Assembly (NCBI GenBank): GCA_000004985.1
Contig: GG738881.1
Source of the DNA: Naegleria gruberi
Taxonomy: Eukaryota
Length of the DNA: 64,000 bases
Direction: 5' to 3' (one strand)
Positions 1 through 62,413 of this stretch are shown here, in pieces. The notes under the pieces are model-generated. The model had not been told where the DNA came from. It saw nothing but the letters and a program-made list of their open reading frames with translations, and made no database searches. Each line of letters starts with the position of its first letter. Positions within the stretch are counted from its first letter, which is position 1. The position numbers and the translations under genes are program-made.

Positions 1-350
1 CCAAACCCAAACCCAAACCCAAACCCAAACCCAAACCCAAACCCAAACCCAAACCCAAACCCAAACCCAAACCCAAACCCAAACCCAAACCCAAACCCAA
101 ACCCAAACCCAAACCCAAACCCAACCCAAACCCAAACCCAAACCCAAACCCAAACCCAAACCCAAACCCAAACCCAAACCCAAACCCAAACCCAAACCCA
201 AACCCAAACCCAAACCCAAACCCAAACCCAAACCCAAACCCAAACCCAAACCCAAACCCAAACCCAAACCCAAACCCAAACCCAAACCCAAACCCAAACC
301 CAAACCCAAACCCAAACCCAAACCCAAACCCAAACCCAAACCCAAACCCA
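1..350. repeat. Telomeric repeat array (CCCAAA)n, about 58 units; C-rich strand shown, so this is a left chromosome end
   Basis: Near-perfect hexamer repeat from position 1 to about 350. There is one variant unit (cccaac) near 121-126. The array ends abruptly at ...cccaaaccca|gaactaaaaa. Confidence 0.9.
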
Positions 351-1929: not shown

Positions 1930-1939
1930 AATTAAATTT

Positions 1940-2600
1940 TACCATCATATCACACTCATTGAATAATGAATTAATTATACAAGCATAATACATTCAATTG
2001 TTATATTCATGTCAGTAATCAGTGAAGGTGACACTTCTTTAACCTTAGTATGCACATCTCAATATGTAGACAGTCAATTCCACTGAAACTTGAAATATTA
2101 CCTATTTAGATGATATAATGATGACTCTACATTGTAACATGAATGTGAAATTGAATGTTGACACTTTTCATATTGTTATATTTATAGAGATGGTATCCAA
2201 CAGAGTCAGTTCACAATATTAAATATTGAAACTCATTCTTTATGACATGTTTGATGTATAGAACTGTTTTTTATTGAATGTAATCAGTTTGAAATAATTT
2301 GATGAAACTGACACTGTCTAGTCACCATTACATGACAAATAGACCATAGTTTACATTCCATCTCAGTCATTTCAACGATTTATTGATTAATTCCACCACC
2401 ATTATGTTTCTCATACATTGTAGTACAGTTTATATTTCAAGAGTGATTTCTGTGTAGATTAGTATAATCGTAATAGCATGCAATACCAATAAAACTCAAT
2501 AGAAGAGTTAATTCTTCTCATTTTCAAATAGATTATTCAATATAGAACACATCTAGATAGTTTCCAGATCATAAAAGTCTAGATACTATATATGGTCTTT
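1940..2600. repeat. Subtelomeric dispersed repeat, copy A (about 660 bp)
   Basis: Shares long blocks with 3560-4150, for example ...attcaattgttatattcatgtcagtaatcagtgaaggtgacacttctt.aaccttagtat.cac.tctcaat..., ...ttatatttatagagatggtatccaacagagtcagttcacaatat.aaatattgaaactcattctttatgacat..., ...accatagtttacattccatctcagtcatttc.acga.ttattgat.a.ttccaccaccattatgtttct.atacac/t.tagtaca.tt... and ...acacatctag..atttccaga..ataaaagtc.agat.c.a.atatgg. Copy A carries an extra insert of about 90 bp. Confidence 0.75.
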
Positions 2601-3559
2601 GATTAAATTTAAAAATAGACTGCCGTTAATTACTGGAATATTAATATTCAAAGCTTGTTGATCAAGCTATTGATTGAAATCAAACCGATTATTGAATATT
2701 GATCATTGAATTGGTGAATAATCACTCTCTTGATAATGCTACAAATTGGATATTGATGCAAATAAACCTGATTCAATCTACAAAGGTTGGTAGTTGCACC
2801 ACTACGTGGCGAAACTACCATTCCACGATGAATCAACAAAGAATCACTTACATTCAACTCAATTTGACCGTTATAATCAATAAATCAATGAAATGTTGTT
2901 TTATTAGCAATACCTATTCAATCTAATGAGTAGATTCACGTCCCAAACATTTGACTTCTCAAAGTCCATAATACAAAAGTTAGTTCTGACCTGACCTTTA
3001 TATATCTATCAATATAAGAAATGAAACCATCAAATTTACATCATTTATAGATGATAAGAATTATAATCAATGATATAAATCTTCACTAAGTAATCTCTTA
3101 AATAACCCAAATAAATCAACTCTGAATCCTAACCAAACCCATATACATCTATACACGTTTTGAAACAATTCATGATACTTTCTTTCAGTCAATCAGTAAA
3201 TATTTAATGTCAATAATGCTTATATCCAAGTGTACACACTGTCTCAATGAAAGTATATCCAACCATCACTTAACTTTACCAGATACATTTAGTCACACTG
3301 ATATACAACTGGTATCAATTTTGGTGTTTTAGAATTGAATTCAATATGATAATAATAACAATCTGTCAAATTCTCATATTTCAACTTGTAGAATATGCTC
3401 CATCTCATTCATTTTACAAAATATCATACAAGTATCAAATATTAATACACTCCTCTTGATGAGGAGAACAATCTGAGAAAGTTTCATATTCATAGCTCAA
3501 TATCTTCATGGGTAGTAAATAGGGAAGTATCTTATTTTCAAAATTAAGTTTTACTATAA

Positions 3560-4150
3560 TTCTACAATTATTGAATAATGAAATACTTATACAAGAATCA
3601 TATATTCAATTATTATATTCATGTCAGTAATCAGTGAAGGTGACACTTCTTCAACCTTAGTATACACGTCTCAATGTGAAGTTGAGTATTGGCACTTTTC
3701 ATCTTGTTATATTTATAGAGATGGTATCCAACAGAGTCAGTTCACAATATCAAATATTGAAACTCATTCTTTATGACATATGTGATGTCTAGAAGTGTTT
3801 TTGATGATATCAATCTAGTTTCAAGCTCTTTGGCGGAGTTGACACTGTTTAGTTACAAATACATGACATTTGGACCATAGTTTACATTCCATCTCAGTCA
3901 TTTCGACGAGTTATTGATCAGTTTCACCACCATTATGTTTCTAATACACTTTAGTACAATTTGTGTTTCATGAATGATTTCTGTGAAAGTTATTATCCAA
4001 ATACCATATATAGTAATATCAATAGTCGTTATATACTCAATTCAAGAGTTAATTTTATTTCTTCTTTTTTTCATATAGATTATTGAATATGGAACACATC
4101 TAGCCTATTTCCAGACTATAAAAGTCCAGATCCCAAATATGGCAAAATGA
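3560..4150. repeat. Subtelomeric dispersed repeat, copy B (about 590 bp)
   Basis: Roughly 85% identical to copy A, same orientation, 1.6 kb downstream. No long ORF in either copy. Confidence 0.75.
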
Positions 4151-4523
4151 ATTCTTGGCGAGAGGGCAAGTTTTTCTGACAAATTCCAAACTTTATTGAT
4201 TATCTCAATAAATATAGGAAGGTACACCTTCCTGTTTTTAACACATGTAGATCAGACTATTATACATCACATTGATAAGTTATAAGATCTGAGCATGTGC
4301 GGATCCCAAACCAGAGAGATAATGACAGATACAATCCCCAAAGATTCCAAATAACTCCGAAATTTTCATTGAATTCAACCCAAGGCATGCCAATAGAATA
4401 TGGGAGAATTGATCAAGAGGATTTTTCAGTAACAAAATGATCACTGTGAAGAATAGTTAGGATTGTGTTGAAATGGAAGTGATGACGCAAACTACACGTG
4501 TTAGTTGGTAGAAACTAAAAAAA

Positions 4524-5645
4524 ATGCAGAAACTCGACATTCATATTCTTCCAGATGAAATAATGGAAGCAATATTGTCCAATCTTCAACTGTATGAAGT
4601 ATTCTTCTGCTTTTCAAGAGTTTCGAAGTATTTTCAACAACTTTCTCATTCAGTCATTCAACATGAATATTACAGCACCATTGTTGACCAATTTAATCAA
4701 AAACCGAGTTCGTTTAATTTCGGAGATTGCATTAAATTCGTCAAATTCAGTTTGAGAAATTCGGTTTATCAATATGCGGTCCTAATTATTCAAAAATACT
4801 TGTCAACCAGAAGTCCAGAATTCAACAATATTCCAGTAATTATGGGAGAAAAAGATTTACAATTTTGGAAACAATCCGAGCAGGATTTTATGTATTTGAA
4901 GGCTTTTTTTGATAATTTTCATGATTTACCAGGTCGTGGTAAGCCTGTTATTGAACCAACTGTTGTAAAAGAAGAAGAAGGATTACTTTCGAATATTTTT
5001 TCCGTATTCGAAACATTATTTGCAATGACAAGTCGAGTAATAGCAAAAAAAACATCTACTTACTCAGATCCTCAACAATCTGTTCACATCATTGGTGAAG
5101 AAGAAAGTGTCTCATCATTTTTCAATTGTGCCTCTTATGATAAAACTCAGAGTTTAACAGTTAGTTTTCCCGATCGTTGTTGGAAGATTGCATATGTTGG
5201 TGATGGGAAATATATGAGGATGTGTTTAACCAAGAATGATTACAATATGGATCAATCATCTTATTTTATCTTGGTGGGAAATCCTTATTCCAGTAATTGT
5301 TTGACAGAATTTGAAATGATGAAGAATGGTATTAAGCAATATTCGAAAGGAGCAGAAGTAATTGTTGTGACTTCAATGAAGGATTTACAAAACGGTCAAC
5401 CAAGATTCATTTCTAATGAACAAGCAAATTGGTTTGCTTATCAACAATTTGGAGGATTGTTCAAGGATATCACAACGACAGAATTGGAAGAACCATATGT
5501 AGTATCTTGTTATTGTTTCTTGATGAGATACTTCCTTGGAAATAAACCCCTTGAACTAGAGAATGAGAATGGATACTATTGGAAAGTGAGGAGTCAGTTT
5601 ATTGTACATGACATTGAGATTGTGGACAGAGTCTTTCGACACTAA
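4524..5645 (+). CDS. F-box-like domain protein (373 aa), single exon
   Basis: ATG at 4524. The N-terminus LPDEIMEAILSNLQLYEVFFCFSRVSKYFQQL fits the F-box pattern (LP.E.L..IL..L....L......VCK.W). TAA stop. Confidence 0.6.
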   Translation: MQKLDIHILPDEIMEAILSNLQLYEVFFCFSRVSKYFQQLSHSVIQHEYYSTIVDQFNQKPSSFNFGDCIKFVKFSLRNSVYQYAVLIIQKYLSTRSPEFNNIPVIMGEKDLQFWKQSEQDFMYLKAFFDNFHDLPGRGKPVIEPTVVKEEEGLLSNIFSVFETLFAMTSRVIAKKTSTYSDPQQSVHIIGEEESVSSFFNCASYDKTQSLTVSFPDRCWKIAYVGDGKYMRMCLTKNDYNMDQSSYFILVGNPYSSNCLTEFEMMKNGIKQYSKGAEVIVVTSMKDLQNGQPRFISNEQANWFAYQQFGGLFKDITTTELEEPYVVSCYCFLMRYFLGNKPLELENENGYYWKVRSQFIVHDIEIVDRVFRH

Positions 5646-5821: not shown

Positions 5822-7144
5822 TTATTTCTTCATCACTGAAAGAGTTTTCACCAAAAATTCTTTTGTACTCTTTTTCAATTTTTCCAGTTCACTGCCATTT
5901 CTTCTCAAATATTTGAAAAGTTTTCCAACTTCTTGTTTTGCACGCTTTTCTCCATCGTTGTGATATTTTGAATTTAATGTTCTAATTTCTACATGTGGTT
6001 TGATACCCATATTATTATATTCCAACTTGGTGGCTCTTGTCTTGCAAAGTGGACATTGATTTAAGGAACTGAAAGGTTTCATACTCATTTCACACTTGAC
6101 AAAATTATTCGAATCTTCAAATTGGGAATCAAATGGAATATCCCTGGTGAGTTGATAGTCTTCTGCCGTTAGAATATCATCCTCATCAGCTGCAATATCT
6201 GTAGAAGAAGGCAATTTAGCACATTGCTCATAAACACAATTCTCACACAAACAACAATGGTAACATGGAACAAATTGATATACAGGTTGATTTTCTAAAC
6301 ACAAGACACATGTTTCACTCTTCAAGTCAGTTGTAGCTCCATAAGAATTAGAAATATTGACCGTTCTTGATGTCCTTGAAGTTGAACTCTGACAAGTGTT
6401 ATTAAATTTAAAAACATGCAAACTTACCAGTCGTTGCTCAATTTCTTCCAAATCACTCTTTAGTTTGGCTTTATGATTCTTCATTTGTGTCAAATTCATA
6501 TTGGCAATGTTTTCGAGACCTGTAACAACTCTTGACAGTTGAGTGGTTTGAAAAGCTTGGCGAAAGAGCTCTATTGTCTCTATTTCTCTTTGTAATGCCC
6601 TTCTTTCTTCCAATCTTTCAGCTTCTAGCTGTGTTATGTCATAAGTCACAAAGTCCACAATATAAGAAATCAAACCAATGATTGAAGACACCTTATAAAT
6701 CAACCAAATCAGATATTTAACGCCACTAAAACTAACATTCCATGAATAGATATAATACATGATCACCAAACAATCAGGAATTCCCAAAAAGTTATGCAAA
6801 ATCACTTGCCAAAGTGACAAATGATTCCAGTAATAAAATGTCAAATTAGGAAAGACATAATAGAATACCATCTTCATATAAGAGATAGAAGATACCCTCT
6901 GCTCCTCTGGAATGTGAAAATCTTCATTTCCAATCCAATTACTTGTTTTTAAATAAAGAAAAACACAGAACAAGGTTAATGGATTGAAAAGTACAGAGCA
7001 AAATCTGATGACAGTGTTGATATTTTGGCGTTCCTGAGGGTGGTATACAGGAGGGATAAGAAATCTAACGATTGCTTTGTACATTTTTTTTAAATGATAG
7101 TTTTTGTGTTGACACTTTGAAAATTTGACAGAATCATTGATCAT
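5822..7144 (-). CDS. Multi-pass membrane protein with coiled coil and C-terminal C3HC4 RING finger (putative membrane E3 ubiquitin ligase), 440 aa
   Basis: ATG at 7144 (minus). Hydrophobic helices in the N-terminal half. RING motif CVLCLENQPVYQFVPCYHCCLCENC. TAA stop. Confidence 0.6.
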   Translation of the reverse strand: MINDSVKFSKCQHKNYHLKKMYKAIVRFLIPPVYHPQERQNINTVIRFCSVLFNPLTLFCVFLYLKTSNWIGNEDFHIPEEQRVSSISYMKMVFYYVFPNLTFYYWNHLSLWQVILHNFLGIPDCLVIMYYIYSWNVSFSGVKYLIWLIYKVSSIIGLISYIVDFVTYDITQLEAERLEERRALQREIETIELFRQAFQTTQLSRVVTGLENIANMNLTQMKNHKAKLKSDLEEIEQRLVSLHVFKFNNTCQSSTSRTSRTVNISNSYGATTDLKSETCVLCLENQPVYQFVPCYHCCLCENCVYEQCAKLPSSTDIAADEDDILTAEDYQLTRDIPFDSQFEDSNNFVKCEMSMKPFSSLNQCPLCKTRATKLEYNNMGIKPHVEIRTLNSKYHNDGEKRAKQEVGKLFKYLRRNGSELEKLKKSTKEFLVKTLSVMKK

Positions 7145-7991: not shown

Positions 7992-10900
7992 ATGAACAGG
8001 ACAGTTACTCCAGTATTATCTGATCCTTTCGAATATTCTCAAAACAAAACAACAACACACTACCAAAAACAAATAATGTCGTCCAAGATAACATCCACCA
8101 GCAACAACCACTTTTCTTCTCTCAATAGTGATGAAAATGTAAAACACCAACAAGAAGCAATACAACAATCATCATCATCGGCATCGTCATCAACAACATC
8201 ATCTTTTTCAAATAGTAGTGGTAGTGGTGCCGTATTATTGTCATCATTTCAAGAAAAGGCAATCAATGAAATCATGATACGAGCATTCACGAATCGGAAT
8301 GTCATTCTCATTGTTTTTATCATTATATATTGTTGTTCTTTATTGTATACCTTCACTTCTCAGGGAATATTTGGAACATTATTTAATATGTTTCTAATTG
8401 CTGTTCAGATGACATTAAATAGAGGAAATATCAAATCAACAATGGCTATGGATTTTTCAAAAGCAGATAAAGATGAGAAACAAAGACTTGTCTATTCAAT
8501 GATTATTACAACGTTGAGATATTTCATATTTCCGAAAAACAAGATTTTGTTTCTTCCTTCGACGTTTATGTGGTTTGTTGGAGCTAACAAATTGTTTGAT
8601 GAGAATAATGCTTTTTGGGGAATGTTGCCGACCTATTTCTTAACAAGTCTATATGGAGGAGTTGGATTGGTGGCAGCTGTGATGGAATTTGTGAGGAAGG
8701 GATGTAGTGAGACATTTGTGGATTCAGCTTGTGAATGTGCTTCAATGACTTGTTGTATTTGGGTATTCACCTATTACAAGGTTAATGTGACTGGGTATTT
8801 GAGGCAGAAAGTTGCAACTTTGGAAGAAACCAGTAAGAAATTAGAGTCAGCTCTGGAATCAAAAAGTACATTTTTGTCTCACATTTCACATGAATTTAGG
8901 TGTCCATTGCTGTCGTCATTGGGAAGTTTGGAATTATTGAAAGAAACAAATATGAGTGACAAGCAAAATCGACTGGTTGACATGATTATTTCATCCAACA
9001 ATATTTTGCTAATGCTCATTGAGGAAGTGTTACAATTGATGAAAATTGAATTCAATTCAAAGAATGACAAACGAGATGAGTATTTAAAAACATTCAATTT
9101 GGGAGAATGTCTAAAATCCCTTAAAGATGTCATTTCTGGTTATTCGAATCATTTTTCTGTCAAGTNNNNNNNNNNNNNNNNNNNNNNNNNNNNNNNNNNN
9201 NNNNNNNNNNNNNNNTTATAGTTTCGAGGAAATCGTTTTTTAACTTTGAATAAATTCCGAATCCAATCAAGCTTAATAATATCTTCCATAGTATGTTCTG
9301 ATTTGTTCACTAGAGTTTTTAATGAATCAATTGATTTGCATAACTTGAGTTGAGATGAAGACAGGTTGTTTTTCAATAGATTTCTCTCCGAACTTTCCTG
9401 CAATAACCTTTCATACCTTCGTTTGAGACTAAACTTTTGATTTCGAACCGCTTGTAATTCTATTGTCATTAATTAAAATCATATCACAATTTATTACAAA
9501 CCTTTGGTTCTTTTTGCTTTTTCTTGATCGGATTGAGCCTTACGTTTTTTTTCATTTGCCTTCTTTAACAATGCGTACTCTTTACCTTTTTCCATCAAAT
9601 CCCTGTCAATTGTAAAATTGATGAACTCTAAATCATGGTCGGTAAGATAGATTTCTACCATTTCTCTGGCTAAATCAAATCTAGATTTCATATTTGCAGA
9701 TTTTACAACTCCTTTGTATTGCTTGATTCTTGTATTAACATTTGAAATTTTGAAAGGAGCTCCCAATTTAATCACCTTATCGATAACTGGATCGTAAACT
9801 GTGCAAGTATTGACATACTCAAAACGAACTTTGCAATAATGTTCATTTTCTTCAATCCTTTTCAATTTTTCTTTGAAACTAATCTCTTTTGGATCTTCTG
9901 CGCATGTTTCGATAGATGATGATCTTGTTTGAGCTGTACTATTGAGGGGATCTTGAATCAATTCTAATAACTTTCTTGCAACTCTTCTCTTCAAGCCAAT
10001 CAATTCCAAAGACTCCTCATTTTCATCCAACAAATGCTCTGACAATCTTATAACGTTTTCATAAAGAGCCAACTTGATTTTCTCAAGCTCATCATCCTCA
10101 AGAGCCATTGAGCTTTGCAATAGTTCCATCAAATCATCCATTTCTAACATTTTTTTCTTAATTCTTATATAATTTAGAACAGTTACATCCTCTTATATTG
10201 TAGTATTTCTCATAGATAATTTCTCAGTAACATCTCTCCTTAATATAACTATTAGATTTGTAGCTGATTATATCGGAATTATCCATCCATTATCCATTTT
10301 ATCCTGGCTTTGTCTTGATGGGATCCACTTATAGTGGATCCCATCTGACAAAATCCTTTCAATCCAGCGTTGGCTGGATAACACGGATACATATTACCCT
10401 CGTTATTATTATCGTATTGAATTCTATTCTAACAATGTGAAATTGATACAAGATATATAGTAATGTAATTAAATGTATCTGGTAAATTTACATGGTAAAT
10501 TTACATGATGATTGGATGTACTTTCATTGAGATGGAGTGTTCACTAGGATATATAGTGTTGACATTGAACATTCTGATTAATTTTATGAAAGTAGTTTGA
10601 AATGTTTCTAAACTATTNNNNNNNNNNNNNNNNNNNNNNNNNNNNNNNNNNNNNNNNNNNNNNNNNNTCATTACACAATGTGAACGAATCTCATGTTCCA
10701 TCATCAGGATTGGGCTTAACTACTGTCTTACAATTTATTAAACAAATGGATGGAACTATAGATGTGGAATCTGAACTAGAAAAAGGAAGTACATTTATTG
10801 TCACACTACCTTTCAAAATAATGAAAAAGGCGGAATTTTCTGATTGGGATAATAGTGGAGCCAAGATGAATTTTTCAATTCAACAGAGATACCTTTCTCT

Positions 10901-11318
10901 TTTATCAAATGTTCATGAAATGAGTGAAGAATCTGCTGCTACCAATTCTCCAGAAGTTTATTCAAAGATTATTCTGGCAGAAGATAATGCTATCAATAGA
11001 AAAGTCATCCTCAAACTCATTGAAAGTATTACAGGATATACAGCTGATTTTGTCTCAGATGGAAAGGAATTAGTTAAAAATTTTGACATTCGACGCCATA
11101 GGTTGGTGATTACAGATCTTAACATGCCAAACATGGATGGTATTGAGGCAGCCAAAGAGTTGAAGCGTTTGTATGGAAATTCTGTCAAAATTATTATCCT
11201 CACTGGTAATTCAGCTGTCAATGTTGAATCTCTGAAAGGAATTGTTGATGGATTGCTGGAAAAACCATGTTGTAAAGAAGATTTACGGAAATGTATTGAT
11301 CTATACTGTAAGGAATAA
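7992..11318 (+). CDS. Hybrid sensor histidine kinase (multi-TM sensor - HisKA - [gaps] - HATPase_c - REC), disrupted in this assembly
   Basis: ORF 7992..9165 carries 4-5 TM helices, a coiled coil and the H-box LSHISHEFRCPL. ORF 10668..11318 carries the G2 box SGLGLTTV and a complete receiver domain (IILAEDNAINRKV...ITDLNMPNMDG...LEKP). The two halves are separated by 50-N gaps at 9166-9215 and 10618-10667 and by about 1.4 kb of opposite-strand coding sequence. The N and G1 boxes are not present in the sequence shown. Confidence 0.75.
9216..9469 (-). CDS. Hypothetical ORF (partial, runs into the gap at 9166-9215)
   Basis: ATG at 9469, immediately downstream of the stop of 9494..10150. It may be a separate small gene or spurious. 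Confidence 0.25.
9494..10150 (-). CDS. Hypothetical acidic/basic protein (218 aa) lying between the two halves of the histidine kinase on the opposite strand
   Basis: ATG at 10150, TAA at 9494. No domain recognised. Confidence 0.45.
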   Translation of the reverse strand: MLEMDDLMELLQSSMALEDDELEKIKLALYENVIRLSEHLLDENEESLELIGLKRRVARKLLELIQDPLNSTAQTRSSSIETCAEDPKEISFKEKLKRIEENEHYCKVRFEYVNTCTVYDPVIDKVIKLGAPFKISNVNTRIKQYKGVVKSANMKSRFDLAREMVEIYLTDHDLEFINFTIDRDLMEKGKEYALLKKANEKKRKAQSDQEKAKRTKGL

Positions 11319-17808: not shown

Positions 17809-20800
17809 ATGATGATGACTACAACACCGAATGTTGATATAATGATGGTTGGAAATACACAACAACAACAACAATATTCCACCAATAATCAATCACAGGT
17901 ACATAACTTTATTAACGATCCCAATGATTGGAAATTAAAAGTAGTTTCTGGACAATTTCGTGATGAAGATTTAATTAATAATCAAATTGAGTCAGATGAT
18001 GATGATGGTCTTTATAGTGATCATCAATTAACAATGGATGATGATTCAGATGATGATGCTTTTTTTGGAGGAAGACAACGTAACAGCCAAATTGTCATTA
18101 CTCATGGCAAACATGATTTGGATTCTTCTTCATCAGATGAGGAAGAGGAAGAACATGCCAAATCACCTAAGAAGATGAAATCTTTTAGAATGGGACAAGA
18201 TGAGGAAGAGGAACTTGATACTCCTGCCTTTCAACATGTCAATTCAATTCGTATGAATCATCCCTTCTATCAAAAGTATGGAGATGCTGAGAGTGGAATA
18301 ACAACTGATGCTGCTTCACAACAACCAATTATTCAACAACAATCTATCATTCTATCACCTTCTTCACCTATTGACAGTAAACAACAACAACAATTGAATA
18401 ATAATAATACAAAGAATGATGAACAAGAGAAACAACAAGAATTAACAACAACAACAACAACATCAATTCCAGATTGCTCATCAGACTCATCAGAATCATC
18501 AGGTTTTAATAATGAAGTGGTGTCATCATCACTTAAAGGAAGTGTGGAGCAAACGTCTACATTTGTTCCGACATTGTCCTCTAAACACGATGCAACTATT
18601 CCACAACAGCAACAACAACAATCACTAACACAAAACACAGCAACAGTTCCAACAATAATAACCGAAGTTGTTGAATTTCAACAACCTATCATCACCAACA
18701 ACAACAAACAAACAGAAGAATAACACCACCACTCAATCATCTGATGAGGATCATCACCAATTTGAAATTGTTACCACAACTACCATAGAGGATGCCAATT
18801 CTACAGTACAATACACTACCACCACCGTTCCTTCTTCAACTCCTAATTTATCCAACAACCAAACAATAGCAGCCAATAATCCATACGCTTCTGAGAATGA
18901 CAATAATTATGCACTCCAACAGGCACTCCAGTACAGCACTACTGTTTTTGATGATACCTCAACAGAATATATTGATGATCCTTTTGCAAGGATGGAGTCA
19001 CCTTTTGTTAATAACGGTCCTAAGAGAAGTATTATTGATCCTTCTACAAGAGTACAACCAGCTCAAAAGAAACGTGTTCGTTTTGCAGATAGTGTCACTC
19101 TGTTTCCAATTACTTACATCAATGTAAGTCCGAGAGAGGAAAAGCCAAATAACTTGACTTGGTATCAACAACAACAACAACAACAACCACAACAACAATT
19201 TTCTATTGTCACTACAATTTCTAGTCCAATATCACCAACTCCTTCTTCTTCTTCTACTACTGCCCCAACACCTGGATCAGTAGTACCAAAGAGTAATGGC
19301 ACCACAACAACAGCAACAGTCACAAAAACAACATCAGCAACAAGTAGTAACCCACCAAAGAAGGAAATGAACAATTCTACTCCTCCACAACAGTCAACAA
19401 ACTCAACAAATGCAAAATCTACTGTATCTTCTAATAGTTCTTCAAAAGAAGCAAAAGAAGAGGATACAATTCCAAGTAATCATTTCAATGAGGACAATGA
19501 AAAGGATAATGATGATAATTCTGGAAACCCAAATGATAATTATGAGGATGATGAATTTAGAACCAATGATGGAAAGAGGAGATTTTGGGGTTTGACTGGC
19601 TACCAATATTTGGTATTGTCATCAGCTTGGCTTGGATGGGCATTTGACATTTTTGATGGAGTATTATTCAGTTATGCAGCACCAATTTGCATTCCAAATT
19701 TATTGGGATATCCTGACGATCAAATTACATCAACAGCTGCAAAGGAACAAACAGCTCTCTGGAGTAGTATTTTGAGTACTGTACTATTGTTTGGTTGGGG
19801 ATGTGGTGGAGTTTTTTTCGGCTGGCTGACAGATAAAGTTGGACGATCAAAAACCATGATGATAACAATCATTGTCTATAGTATTGGAACATTTTTAGCT
19901 GCATTTTCGTTCCATATTAGTGTTTTAGTAATACTGAGATTTGTTGCAAGTCTTGGTATTGGAGGAGAGTGGTCTGCAGGTGCAGCCCTCATTTCAGAAA
20001 CTCTTCCTATTGAGAAGAGAGTTATTGGAGGAGTTTTACTCTACACAGCTGCTCCTTTAGGAAGCATGGCATCATTTGCTGTTAATTATCTTATCACAAG
20101 TGTTTTACTTCAAACGACAACTAATCCAATAGTTAATGGCACAATAACAAATTCTACAATGCTCATTACTGATGGACTTATGAGTGGTGATATTAATGCT
20201 CCAGTGGTAACCGGTGGACCTATTCCTCTGTGGTTATCGTGGAGAATTCTTTTTGCTATTGGTGTTATTCCAACCATTGTTGGTATTTTTGTTAGAATTT
20301 GTGTGAAGGAACCTGATGCATGGCTCGAACAAAAGAAGAGAGAAAAGGAAGAAGAGGAAGAGGAAAATAATACATTGGAAAGTAATGAAATTAATGAAAA
20401 CAATGAAACAGAATTACCACAAACACCTCCTCGTAATAGAAATGTTTCTATTGTTTCAGCAAGTCCAGCTGCTTTTCAGAAGAATGAGGATTCCATTTCT
20501 CTCAATACTGAAGATGATTTGAAGGAAATTGATCTAAATGATCAACCTGTAATGCCACCCATTAGAAGCGAGTCAGAATTCTCCAGTACTTCACTTACTC
20601 CTTTAAAGAAAAAGAAGAAGGGATCATCCTATCTTGATCTTTTTGCCAATGCCGATTTGAGAAAGAGAACCATTTCAGCCATTCTCTTTGTTTGTCCTGC
20701 CTTGATTTCATGGTGGTGCATTTCTACGTTTATTCCAATTTTGAGCACTCATCTTGCTTCACCCATTGAGGATGCAACTGAAAGAAAAATCACACAGAAT

Positions 20801-48038: not shown

Positions 48039-49760
<1,722 letters not shown>

Positions 49761-56615: not shown

Positions 56616-56645
56616 AAACTTGATATTTCTGTGATTTTAAAAAGG

Positions 56646-56734
56646 TAGGGTGGTACGTGGATCGAACACGTGACCATCGGATATCTGCTGCAAATTACAT
56701 TGCAATCCGGTGCTCTACCGCTGAGCTAACCACC
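56646..56734 (-). tRNA. tRNA-Cys (GCA) with an intron of about 17 nt in the anticodon loop
   Basis: Minus-strand sequence GGGTGGT-TA-GCTC-AGCGGT-AGAGC-A-CCGGA-TT-GCA-A-[intron about TGTAATTTGCAGCAGAT]-..-TCCGA-TGGTC-ACGTG-TTCGATC-CACGT-ACCACCC-T. Perfect 7-bp acceptor stem, canonical D and T arms, U73 discriminator typical of tRNA-Cys. The intron contains TGCA complementary to the anticodon. Confidence 0.65.
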
Positions 56735-56876
56735 CCTTCGATCATTACTTTTAAATATTCATTTCTATAGGAACAATATCCTTAATCAACTTTTGTTTAT
56801 AATTGTAATATTTTATTTAATTGAATAGTTTAGTTAGAAACAATTTAATATGTGAGATTTTCAAGTAGTGGTGTTG

Positions 56877-59800
56877 TTACTTATCCCAATAAATTACTTC
56901 GCCTCCCTTACTGCCAGTCACAACACTTTCTCCATCATCACTCACTCCAATAGTTGTCATTGGACTTGCATGTGCAGTTAGAGAAGAGGCAAGAGATCCA
57001 TCAGCCACATTCCACTTGTACAATTTACCATCCTCTCCACCAGATAATAATTCAAAACCATCTGTGCTTAAACATCTCCAAGCTTGATTAACACTCGAGT
57101 GATTAAATTGGGCAATTTCAGATCCAGAAATGTCAAATAATTTGATGGAACCATCCTTTGAACATGAAATAAACCTTTGACTGTCTTCACCACAGAAACA
57201 CAAATCTGAAACAACATCACTGTGGGCACTGAATTCTGCAACGGCCTTCTTTTGTCTAACATCTATTACAATAATGACACCATCTTCACTTCCAGAAACA
57301 ATCATATTACCAGAAGTATCAATATTCAAGCTGTGAACAGGAGAATCATGTTCTTGGAAAGTTGCCAGGGGCGTCGTTGAGACAGAATCTGATGAACATT
57401 TCCAAACTTTCACTGTTGAATCCCAAGAGCTAGATATCAAACTATCTCCACTAATGCAAATCTTTGAAACAGCATCCTCGTGACCTTCCAAAATATCCAA
57501 AACCTTTCCATACTCAACAGAGTAGACATAAACTCTATTATCCCATGAACCAGCAATGAGAACCTTTTGTTCTGAATTTGGATCTTCAATCACAGCACAC
57601 GATGAGAGTGCCATATCACCCATATCTGCTATTCTTCTCAATTGGCGTTTCGATTCAATAGAATAAACCTTGCATGTACTGTCATCACTACTGGTATAAA
57701 TTCTTGACTTGTCCTTGCTTATTATTGCAGAAGTAATACGATCTCTATGCAAGTCAACTTTAAATGAAATGTCATCAGAAGTTGAGTATTTTGGCATGAA
57801 TTCACTAACTTGACTCATACTCTTTTGCTTTCTGAGTTTGGATCTCTTTTTTCTTGTTCTTGGACTGTTATCACCAAGACTATCTAACGAGATGGAAGAT
57901 GAGAGTGATTCATCTTCATTATTTGAGAAACTCTCTTCAGAAATCTTACTCAGCATAAAACTACTTGGTCTATTCAAATCTGTCTTTAACATGTCACTAA
58001 TATCAAAGTCATCATCTTTTGGAGTAATGATAGGGGAAAATGGTGAAGAAACACTTCTAACCACTGGAGATGATGATTTAGAACTAGTGTTACTAAAACT
58101 TTCCATTAAGAGTGAGGAAGAATAGCTTCTTGCTGGAGATTTTGGAACTACCTCCTTGGTAGCTGAAATAATATCCAAAGGAATGACATCTGAGGAGGTC
58201 ACCGAGAATTTAGTAATGTTAGAAAGATTGGTTCCAGTTTTTCTTTGTGGATGTGGATGATTGAAAACTTGTCTTGGAGTTTGACCAAACTCTCTGATTT
58301 GAATTTCAATACCTCTTCTTTGGACAGGATCTCGAATCTTTTCAATATCAATAGCACCTTCATAGGTCAAATAGTAGAAGAGATTGTCAGCTTTAACTGC
58401 CTCTTCACCAATTTGTTTGTATCCAAATATTAAATCAATCCAATGATGGAGATTCTGAGAGACATGGTCACTCTCGAGAGCTAGTCTGCATTTGTAAACA
58501 AATTCCTGTTCATCCTTTGCCCATGGTGGTAAGATAACATTATTCACACGTTGACCATTATTTCTCACACCCAAATCAAGATTTAAGGAATTGATCAAGA
58601 AACTACCTGTTGATTGATAAAATTCTGGAATGAGTTCTTTCAAATCGGCAGTGTTAGAAAGAACAGAATTATAAGTGCTTTGAATGGAGAAGAACTCTCT
58701 ATCAGGAGCATCAAATCTACCATTTTGTAATTTGAGCATGTACTCTGGAGCTTGTCTGAGAAGGAAATACAAGACATAACCTGGTGTCGAGTAGTGAGTA
58801 CCATATAAGAATTTTGGATCTGGCATGTCGTAGTATCTTTGTTTGAATCCTTCTAGTCTGTTTGGATTGAGTGCACCTATTGGCTTTCTCAAATCTCTGA
58901 AAGTATTAGGATTATTCAAATCGAGAGTCTTACTCGTGTAATCAGCAATTACCCAAGGGAAAACTGGATACTGAGTCAAATCATTGAATGATCTATCTGC
59001 AATAAAGTTCAAATAGAGCAAATAATCAAAATTGCTGATTAATCCACTTTGCCATTTGAGGGTCATATTCCCTTGATCATTTAGAGAAATGTTAGAAATG
59101 ATTGGTTGTTTTAGAATAATGTTATAAATATTGTCTCTCTCTGTTTGATTCTTGACTGCTAAAAAGATACTCTTATTGTTTTGCATAAAAACTTCAATAC
59201 CAATATGACGAAGGTTGTGTCTTCTTCTCACAATTCTGTTAATATCCCTCAAATTATACTTTTTAACAGGTTTTGTACTAATATTGTTGAAAGGTTGAAA
59301 GTAAATCCTCTCATTAGTCAATAGAATGCATCCATGTGTATCGACGAGTGGTGTCACTTTGGTACCATGAGTTTCATACAGAGTCTGTTCTCTGAAATCC
59401 TCAAGCCAAGTCACATCAAATGAAAATCCTTTAGCAATTTGATCCTCATAGATTTGATTAATTTGTTCCACTGATGGAAGTCCAGAATTACTTTGGAATA
59501 ATTGATAGATTGGGGTAACTTTTTCAACAAATTGTTGTGCAGTTAAGAATGTTAATCCAATAACAACTGTTTCAGTTTGCTATTATTATAATAATTTTAA
59601 ATTTTCCAATAAAGTTTCATGATCAGTAGTACCACCATCATCAACATCATCAAATTGAATCAATTAACAATCAATAAAGCAAGTAAAGGAATTGAAAATT
59701 TGTCCATTACCAACTGTAAATAATTCCCGAAATTATTCTTCTTCTTACCTTTTTAAATATGAATGGATGGTCCTTGTTTCCTTTTCTAATTTCTACAAAT

Positions 59801-60574: not shown

Positions 60575-62413
60575 TCAAAACGTACCATCTTGACAGGATT
60601 GGTTGCTCCAACATTGTATATCAATAAATGTTGATTGAGTCATTTTACGTATGAATTCAACTCCTTCACCAGAAATACTATTTTCATAAATAGAAAGTCT
60701 GGTCAATTGGTTCATTTTACTGATTGCCTTGAATCCTTCATCACTAATATTATTATCGCAAACATCTAGATGGGTCAATTGTTTCAGTTCACTTATTGAC
60801 ATAGCTCCATCATTACCTAAATTATTTCCTTTAATCACAAGTTCAGTTAAATTTTTCAAGTCTGAAAGGTGTTTAGCTCCTTCACTACTAATAGAATTAT
60901 GGGAAATATCTAGAATAGTCAGTTTTTTCAGTTCACTTATATGCATAGCTCCATCATTACCTAAATTATTTCCTGTAATCACAAGTTTAGTTAAATTTTT
61001 CAAGTCAGTAAGGTAATTTGCTCCTTCACTGCTAATAGAATTATCGGAAATAGAAAGCTCCTTCAATTGTTTCAATTCACTAATGTATTTAGCTCCTTCA
61101 TCACTAATACGATTATAGGGGATATTGAGACAGGTCAATTGATTCAATTGACTGATGTATTTCACACCTACACCTCTCATTTCACTGTAAGGAAAATTAA
61201 GAATTGTTAAATTTTTCAATTCGCTAATGTATTCAAGTCCTTCACCATCAAAATGACTTTCAAGAATAGAAAGTTCTGTCAATTGTTTCAATTTACAAAT
61301 GTGAAAAACTCCTTTCTTATTAATATTGTTTACAGAAATGTCAAGTTTGGTTAATTGTGTCATTTCGCTTATATACTCAGCTCCTTGTTCACAAACGTAA
61401 TTCTCAGAAACAAGTAGAGTAGTTAATTTTTTCATATTTCTAATATATTTAGCACCTTCTTCACGAACATAGTTTTTAGTAACATCAAGATATGTTAATT
61501 GTTTCAATTCACTGATATATCTAGCTTGTTCAGATCTAATACCACTTTCAGAGATATAAAGACTTGTCAATTGGTTCAATTTGCTAATATATTTAGCTCC
61601 CTCAATACTAATTTCATTTTCACTAATGTGAAGAACTATCAATTTTTTCAATTGACTTATTGATTGAAGTACTTTATCGTCAATACTACATGTATTAATA
61701 TTAAGGCATGTCAACTGCTCAAATTTACCAATATATTGAGCTCCTCCACTACCTATCTTAATACGAGAAATATCAAGATTTGTTAAATGTTCCAATCCAC
61801 TCAAATATATTATTCCTGCATCACCAATACTATCATTGCAGGCAATTTCAAGACTTGTTAATTGTTTCAATTGACTGATATATTTAGCGCCTACATTGTC
61901 AATATAATTAGCAGAAATATTAAGCTTTGTTAATTTGTTAAATGATTCACTGATAATTTTAACTCCTTCGGAACCAATATAATTACCAGAAATGTAAAGA
62001 CTTGTTAATTGTTTCAATTCAGCCATGCTTTCAACATGTTCATCATCAATATCCATTCCTTGAATTTCAAGACTAGTCAATTGTTTCAATTGACCAATAT
62101 ATGTAACTGATTCGGAATCAATTTTAACTCCAACAACGTAAGGAATACAAAGATTAGTTACTGATTTCATCAATATTAATTTTTTGTAAATATTTGATAG
62201 TACTTTAATCTCAAGATTTGCAATATTTTGTAAAAATTGACCATTTACATCATTGGAATGACATTTAACAGTCATATTATGACATGTTGATAGAATGACA
62301 TTGTACCATTGTTTAGAAACTAATGCACAATTCATGACAAGAAATTTAAAATCGTCACCATAGAACGATAAAATTTCATAAATAACATCATCTTGAAAAA
62401 CTTCTCTTTCCAT
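60575..62413 (-). CDS. F-box-like + leucine-rich-repeat (RNI-like, about 20 repeats) protein, 612 aa
   Basis: N-terminus DDVIYEILSFYGDDFKFLVMNCALVSKQWYNVIL is F-box-like. Then a regular 24-25-aa LRR repeat (LKQLTSLEIQGMDIDDEHVESMAE / LKQLTSLYISGNYIGSEGVKIISE ...). This gene uses TGA as its stop, the only one in the window. Confidence 0.7.
   Translation of the reverse strand: MEREVFQDDVIYEILSFYGDDFKFLVMNCALVSKQWYNVILSTCHNMTVKCHSNDVNGQFLQNIANLEIKVLSNIYKKLILMKSVTNLCIPYVVGVKIDSESVTYIGQLKQLTSLEIQGMDIDDEHVESMAELKQLTSLYISGNYIGSEGVKIISESFNKLTKLNISANYIDNVGAKYISQLKQLTSLEIACNDSIGDAGIIYLSGLEHLTNLDISRIKIGSGGAQYIGKFEQLTCLNINTCSIDDKVLQSISQLKKLIVLHISENEISIEGAKYISKLNQLTSLYISESGIRSEQARYISELKQLTYLDVTKNYVREEGAKYIRNMKKLTTLLVSENYVCEQGAEYISEMTQLTKLDISVNNINKKGVFHICKLKQLTELSILESHFDGEGLEYISELKNLTILNFPYSEMRGVGVKYISQLNQLTCLNIPYNRISDEGAKYISELKQLKELSISDNSISSEGANYLTDLKNLTKLVITGNNLGNDGAMHISELKKLTILDISHNSISSEGAKHLSDLKNLTELVIKGNNLGNDGAMSISELKQLTHLDVCDNNISDEGFKAISKMNQLTRLSIYENSISGEGVEFIRKMTQSTFIDIQCWSNQSCQDGTF

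Follow-up and report, generated by a model that had tools for sequence, protein, structure and literature searches.

A terminal (CCCAAA)n array in the Naegleria gruberi genome, probably the inner part of a telomere

The stretch of DNA analysed here, called the window, comprises 64,000 nucleotides from Naegleria gruberi (Discoba; Heterolobosea), and presumably corresponds to the initial 64 kb of a scaffold from the public Sanger assembly of this organism. The products of its long open reading frames (ORFs) include F-box, RING, HisKA, Kelch/BTB (LZTR1-like), MFS, kinase, Sel1 and RCC1 proteins, as well as WD40, BEACH, LRR, CobW and pyridine-nucleotide disulphide oxidoreductase proteins, a gene set typical of eukaryotes. 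The BEACH ORF, located at 56877-59471 on the minus strand, shows full-length identity of 100% to a N. gruberi BEACH domain-containing protein encoded on a 379,849-bp scaffold. Its next best matches belong to N. fowleri, Willaertia magna, and Acrasis kona, with 77%, 66%, and 47% identity, respectively. The RING-finger ORF at 5822-7144, also on the minus strand, is 100% identical to a N. gruberi predicted protein from the same 379,849-bp scaffold, and the search among 5.8 billion proteins did not detect a homologue outside N. gruberi. The annotated RING-finger protein, with 312 amino acids, covers 71% of the 440-aa ORF. The identity of the host is in agreement with the earlier note on this DNA, which had described the gene set as heterolobosean in flavour and as not fitting Dictyostelium.

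Stop codons were compared among the 27 long ORFs of the window. Twenty-four of them end in TAA and three in TGA, and TAG is used by none. A run of CAA at 19166-19198 is in frame and encodes polyglutamine. Both observations bear out the standard genetic code, with CAA-encoded polyglutamine and TAA as the dominant stop, that had been proposed for this DNA. A thioredoxin-reductase-like ORF at 48039-49322 on the minus strand ends in ACT GGT TGC TGA GGA TAA, corresponding to Thr-Gly-Cys-TGA-Gly-stop. Judged by its codons, this end reads as the classic GCUG selenocysteine tail, which bears out the remark of the earlier note on a selenocysteine-containing thioredoxin reductase. The search for a SECIS element at the Rfam gathering threshold gave no hit. 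The one RNA gene revealed by the Rfam scan is a tRNA-Ile(AAT) at 56644-56736 on the minus strand, just downstream of the BEACH gene, and its length of 93 nt suggests the presence of an intron. Tandem DNA repeats of 72 and 144 bp, with 61-86% match, are present at 60734-61101 and 61350-62010 within a 612-aa LRR ORF (60575-62413, minus strand), the LRR units of which are recent tandem duplications.

Positions 1-350 of the window are occupied by a telomere-type minisatellite, (CCCAAA)n, with the G-rich sequence (TTTGGG)n on the minus strand. Tandem Repeats Finder reported a single array at 1-350 with a period of 6, 58.5 copies, 99% matches, 0% indels and a score of 693. Parsing with regular expressions divided the same interval into 56 units of CCCAAA and one each of CCAAA, CCCAA, and CCCA. 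The CCAAA is a truncated first unit (1-5) and the CCCA a last partial unit (347-350), leaving the CCCAA at 120-124, which is one A/T shorter than the consensus and corresponds to TTGGG on the G strand, as the sole internal variant. The count of about 58 units with one degenerate unit near position 121, made in the earlier note, is therefore accurate. Outside 1-350, the whole 64 kb contains no further site, on either strand, at which even two CCCAAA or TTTGGG units follow each other; as single hexamers, CCCAAA occurs 21 times and TTTGGG 18 times in the window. A near-perfect hexamer array of 350 bp cannot be explained by chance.

The array begins at base 1 of the window, within which no sequence lies upstream of it. 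At this 5′ end the plus strand reads CCCAAA, and the TTTGGG of the minus strand runs 5′ to 3′ toward base 1. This is the universal polarity of telomeres, whose G-rich strand runs 5′ to 3′ toward the end, and a left telomere requires the C-rich strand at the 5′ side. The length of 350 bp is a lower bound for the tract, set by the length of the read or contig, because the contig carrying the array (1,043 bp) has approximately the length of one Sanger read.

The array is followed at 351-450 by a predicted telomere/subtelomere junction with degenerate telomere-like units, including ctAAACCCAAcg and tcAAACCCtagCCCAAAa, all in C-strand orientation. Six C-strand telomere-permuted hexamers were found in 351-450, compared with 0.145 per 100 bp in 1930-64000, which corresponds to an enrichment of about 40-fold. 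On the G strand, the number of telomere-permuted hexamers within 351-450 is zero. Decayed repeats are usual at the boundary between telomere and subtelomere.

Based on composition, blastn and the ORF list, the 693 bp at 351-1043, which belong to the same contig as the array, were classified as unique, AT-rich subtelomeric DNA with 26.8% GC. The longest ORF in this interval does not exceed 68 aa, and blastn did not detect similarity to the remaining window. The earlier note had the array followed by ordinary unique DNA. That description suits 351-1043, but the unique DNA lasts only 693 bp, and the scan for N-runs then revealed a scaffold gap of 886 N (1044-1929) between the 1,043-bp telomere contig and the gene-bearing sequence. 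Beyond the gap, a gene-poor stretch at 1930-4523, which we also regard as subtelomeric, has 29.7% GC, and all of its ORFs are shorter than 100 aa. The GC content deeper in the window is 31-37%, higher than in 351-1043 (26.8%) and 1930-4523 (29.7%). The first long ORF encodes an F-box protein (4524-5645, plus strand; Pfam F-box match), and the approximately 4.5 kb before it are AT-rich and gene-poor. Two further assembly gaps, of 50 N each, are located at 9166-9215 and 10618-10667, where they interrupt a histidine-kinase region (HisKA ORF 7992-9221 and ORF 10602-11318).

Positions 1-350 very probably belong to the inner part of a telomere on a N. gruberi chromosome, captured at the start of the 379,849-bp scaffold and composed of a telomerase-type TTTGGG repeat. 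The observations that support this reading are the array itself, its terminal position in the sequence, its polarity, the anatomy of the junction, the organism, and the standard code. The array is a real telomere-type array and most likely belongs to the TnAmGo class. It has a short T/G-rich unit with a G run, it is terminal in the window and has the polarity of a telomere, and degenerate repeats are found on its proximal side only. Other end-maintenance systems are not indicated. The RING-finger ORF at 5822-7144, one of the first two long ORFs and with no homologue outside N. gruberi, and the AT-rich, gene-poor stretch fit a subtelomere.

That base 1 of the window is the scaffold start is something we infer, and this gives some room to the alternative of an interstitial telomere-like microsatellite, cut by the boundary of the window and marking no chromosome end. 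Interstitial blocks of telomeric repeats are frequent among the genomes that Fulneckova et al. surveyed (PMC3622300), and 86 out of 120 metagenome arrays with six or more perfect CCCAAA units are internal. However, the chance that a window boundary falls inside a 350-bp array would be approximately 0.5%, and the array far exceeds in length the longest internal metagenome array, a perfect repeat of 132 bp. In addition, the degenerate units are found on the inner side only, the polarity is correct, and the repeat of N. gruberi was placed by the survey among the genomes with a convincing terminal pattern, occurring predominantly at scaffold ends genome-wide (PMC3622300). We consider an interstitial origin very improbable.

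The earlier note had called the array a true chromosome end. For the array, this claim is supported by the onset at base 1, the polarity, the degenerate junction and the survey (PMC3622300). The genes of the window, however, are tied to the array only across the 886-N gap, so that for them the claim rests on mate-pair scaffolding. It could thus be that the telomere is a genuine N. gruberi telomere, and that the 1,043-bp contig stems from another chromosome end and was mis-joined across the gap at 1044-1929, in which case the genes of the window would not be subtelomeric. Such a mis-join is suggested by the gap and by the small size of the telomere contig, which has the length of roughly a single Sanger read, and it would also be consistent with the lack of sequence in common between 351-1043 and the remaining window. 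Furthermore, in Willaertia magna the syntenic block of BEACH, ESCRT-II and WD40 genes lies more than 110 kb from the contig end. Against it, the contig is the outermost one and has the orientation required for a telomere, which a random mis-join would produce only half the time, and the adjacent 1930-4523 is AT-rich and gene-poor, with the RING-finger ORF lacking homologues outside N. gruberi close by at 5822-7144. Moreover, a definite size was estimated for the gap, implying clones that span it. A mis-joined telomere is accordingly an unlikely explanation, although it deserves more weight than the interstitial one.

The shortness of the telomere contig and its separation from the genes by a gap were also weighed with respect to an artefact, which could be of vector or adapter origin, or could have arisen when a read of a contaminating ciliate such as Paramecium was assembled into a Naegleria scaffold. 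TTTGGG units are indeed present in the telomeres of Paramecium. Nonetheless, searches of 340-1043 against 72,556 plasmids and 5,426 E. coli genomes returned no match, and the presence of vector or host DNA is therefore not indicated. The earlier note had named an adapter or cloning artefact as one of the cases in which the telomere call would fail. The motif is moreover repeatedly terminal in the N. gruberi assembly (PMC3622300). An artefact is the least probable of the explanations considered here, and a telomere of N. gruberi continues to be the preferred reading.

If 1-350 is the inner part of a telomere, the array would be the product of telomerase. A telomerase RNA with a CCCAAA-type template of about 1.5 copies may direct the addition of TTTGGG units onto the 3′ end of the G strand, and the lone TTGGG unit could reflect an occasional slip or misincorporation. 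The older, inner repeats would gradually decay, giving rise to the degenerate units at 351-450. Synthesis by telomerase, the template, a G-overhang, and the coincidence of the scaffold end with the physical end of the chromosome are all probable elements of this model. A template for the telomerase RNA was also searched within the window. This search gave no more than six 9-mers of 1.5 units, scattered over the window, approximately three times a rough chance expectation of about two, and we attach no significance to this number. Outside the array, the longest string resembling the telomere repeat is ACCCAAACCC, which corresponds to 1.67 units and is located at 49572-49581 on the plus strand, just upstream of the thioredoxin-reductase-like ORF. 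It was rejected as a candidate template and is most likely due to chance.

Telomeres of relatives were not reached by following the synteny of the BEACH gene, as the orthologues of Willaertia magna and Acrasis kona are internal to their contigs. Among the genes searched, the RING-finger ORF is the one closest to the telomere, and it has no homologue outside N. gruberi. In Willaertia magna (JBEGDK010000098.1, 113552-136772), the order BEACH, ESCRT-II (VPS25-like), and WD40 is the same as at 53-59 kb of the window. The Willaertia contig measures 437 kb, and the block occupies 113-137 kb of it, with both contig ends more than 110 kb away.

The scan of metagenomes for (CCCAAA)6 detected 120 contigs. 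Besides the internal arrays mentioned above, 26 arrays were terminal with the polarity of telomeres and eight were terminal with the wrong polarity, terminal meaning located at most 30 bp from the contig end. The excess of correct polarity (26 versus 8) has a one-sided binomial p of approximately 0.0015. Thirteen of these 26 arrays belong to a single metagenome assembly, JAESGV01, and the excess is not significant when its 13 contigs are left out or counted as one (14 versus 8, one-sided p of approximately 0.14). The 120 contigs share neither DNA nor protein with the window, and therefore provide no independent copy of the N. gruberi locus.

All 13 contigs of JAESGV01 (L006, L028, L030, L041, L053, L076, L077, L081, L082, L083, L101, L114, and L119) terminate in (TTTGGG)n in the polarity of a telomere, and they possess long standard-code ORFs. 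In L083, two DYW-type PPR genes accompany an ORF that abuts the array and encodes a Ty3/gypsy-like pol protein with RT, RNase H and integrase. A CHAT-domain protein is encoded among the JAESGV01 contigs as well. Contigs L077, L101, and L119 share subtelomeric homology of 77-92% with each other. The one DYW-type PPR ORF that was searched has no close sequenced relative, and its best matches are PPR proteins of plants with 22-24% identity.

The contigs of JAESGV01 and the other terminal arrays provide independent support that TTTGGG caps standard-code eukaryotic contigs, and at least one environmental eukaryote with the standard code appears to use the same terminal repeat as N. gruberi. A broader proposal, in which telomerase would make TTTGGG repeats not just in N. 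gruberi but across a wider range of poorly sampled protists with the standard code, is speculative, and we hold it to be rather doubtful. If the motif of JAESGV01 and that of Naegleria were shared by descent, a distinct class of telomerase RNA template in Discoba would await discovery.

The TTTGGG telomere motif of N. gruberi has already been known since 2013. It was listed as the candidate telomere repeat of this organism, from the same public assembly, in a survey of 143 genome assemblies (Fulneckova et al. 2013, Genome Biol Evol 5:468; PMC3622300). The survey screened both scaffold ends, 5′ and 3′, for TG/CA-rich minisatellites, with their position and orientation as the criteria (PMC3622300). 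Its authors speak of 'unexpected candidate telomeric repeats', and state that experiments are required to confirm a terminal position (PMC3622300). Our literature search on Naegleria telomeres, TERT and long-read chromosome ends returned only this in-silico report of 2013, and did not return a result on Naegleria telomerase, telomerase RNA, BAL31 or TRAP. Telomeres are not mentioned in the N. fowleri nanopore paper or in the Naegleria pangenome paper. The earlier note had taken the motif as a hint of an under-sampled lineage. This suggestion is not supported, since N. gruberi is a sequenced model organism. With the motif published for this genome in 2013, the array at 1-350 is ordinary. The finding flags a N. 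gruberi scaffold that probably reaches a chromosome end, and has little importance beyond such bookkeeping. In addition, it exemplifies TTTGGG as a pure telomere motif that arose outside the ciliates.

Paramecium is the obvious organism for comparison, as it shares with the N. gruberi array the TTTGGG hexamers on the strand running 5′ to 3′ to the end, and the short terminal tracts. In Paramecium, TAA and TAG are glutamine codons, and the macronuclear telomeres consist of a random mixture of TTGGGG and TTTGGG, produced by a telomerase that misincorporates at one position of the template. In contrast, the array of N. gruberi is pure TTTGGG, with TTGGGG in none of 58 units (0 CCCCAA, 56 CCCAAA), the main stop codon of the host is TAA, and the host is a heterolobosean and not a ciliate. 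A Paramecium-type telomere was therefore rejected, given the absence of a C4A2/C3A3 mixture and the use of TAA as stop in 24 of the 27 long ORFs, which is not compatible with a ciliate code of the Paramecium type. The same conclusion had been drawn in the earlier note from the reading of the genes. The purity of the array, the TAA stops and the non-ciliate host indicate that TTTGGG is most likely an independent derivative, and the hexamer common to Paramecium and N. gruberi is best seen as convergence.

Similar to canonical TnAmGo telomeres of the TTAGGG, TTTAGGG, TTGGGG, and TTTTGGGG types, the array of N. gruberi is built of a short T/G-rich unit with a G3 block in near-perfect tandem copies. 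It is terminal, its polarity is fixed, and its proximal repeats are degenerate. Unlike TTAGGG, which is presumed to be ancestral, the TTTGGG unit of N. gruberi contains no A. Compared with the candidate repeat reported by Fulneckova et al. 2013 (PMC3622300), the organism, the assembly, the motif and the type of evidence (position and orientation) are identical. Positions 1-350 are one instance of that repeat, and nothing substantive differs. What is added here is the anatomy of one end, comprising at least 58 units, the TTGGG variant, the degenerate junction, the subtelomere with 26.8% GC, and the scaffold gap.
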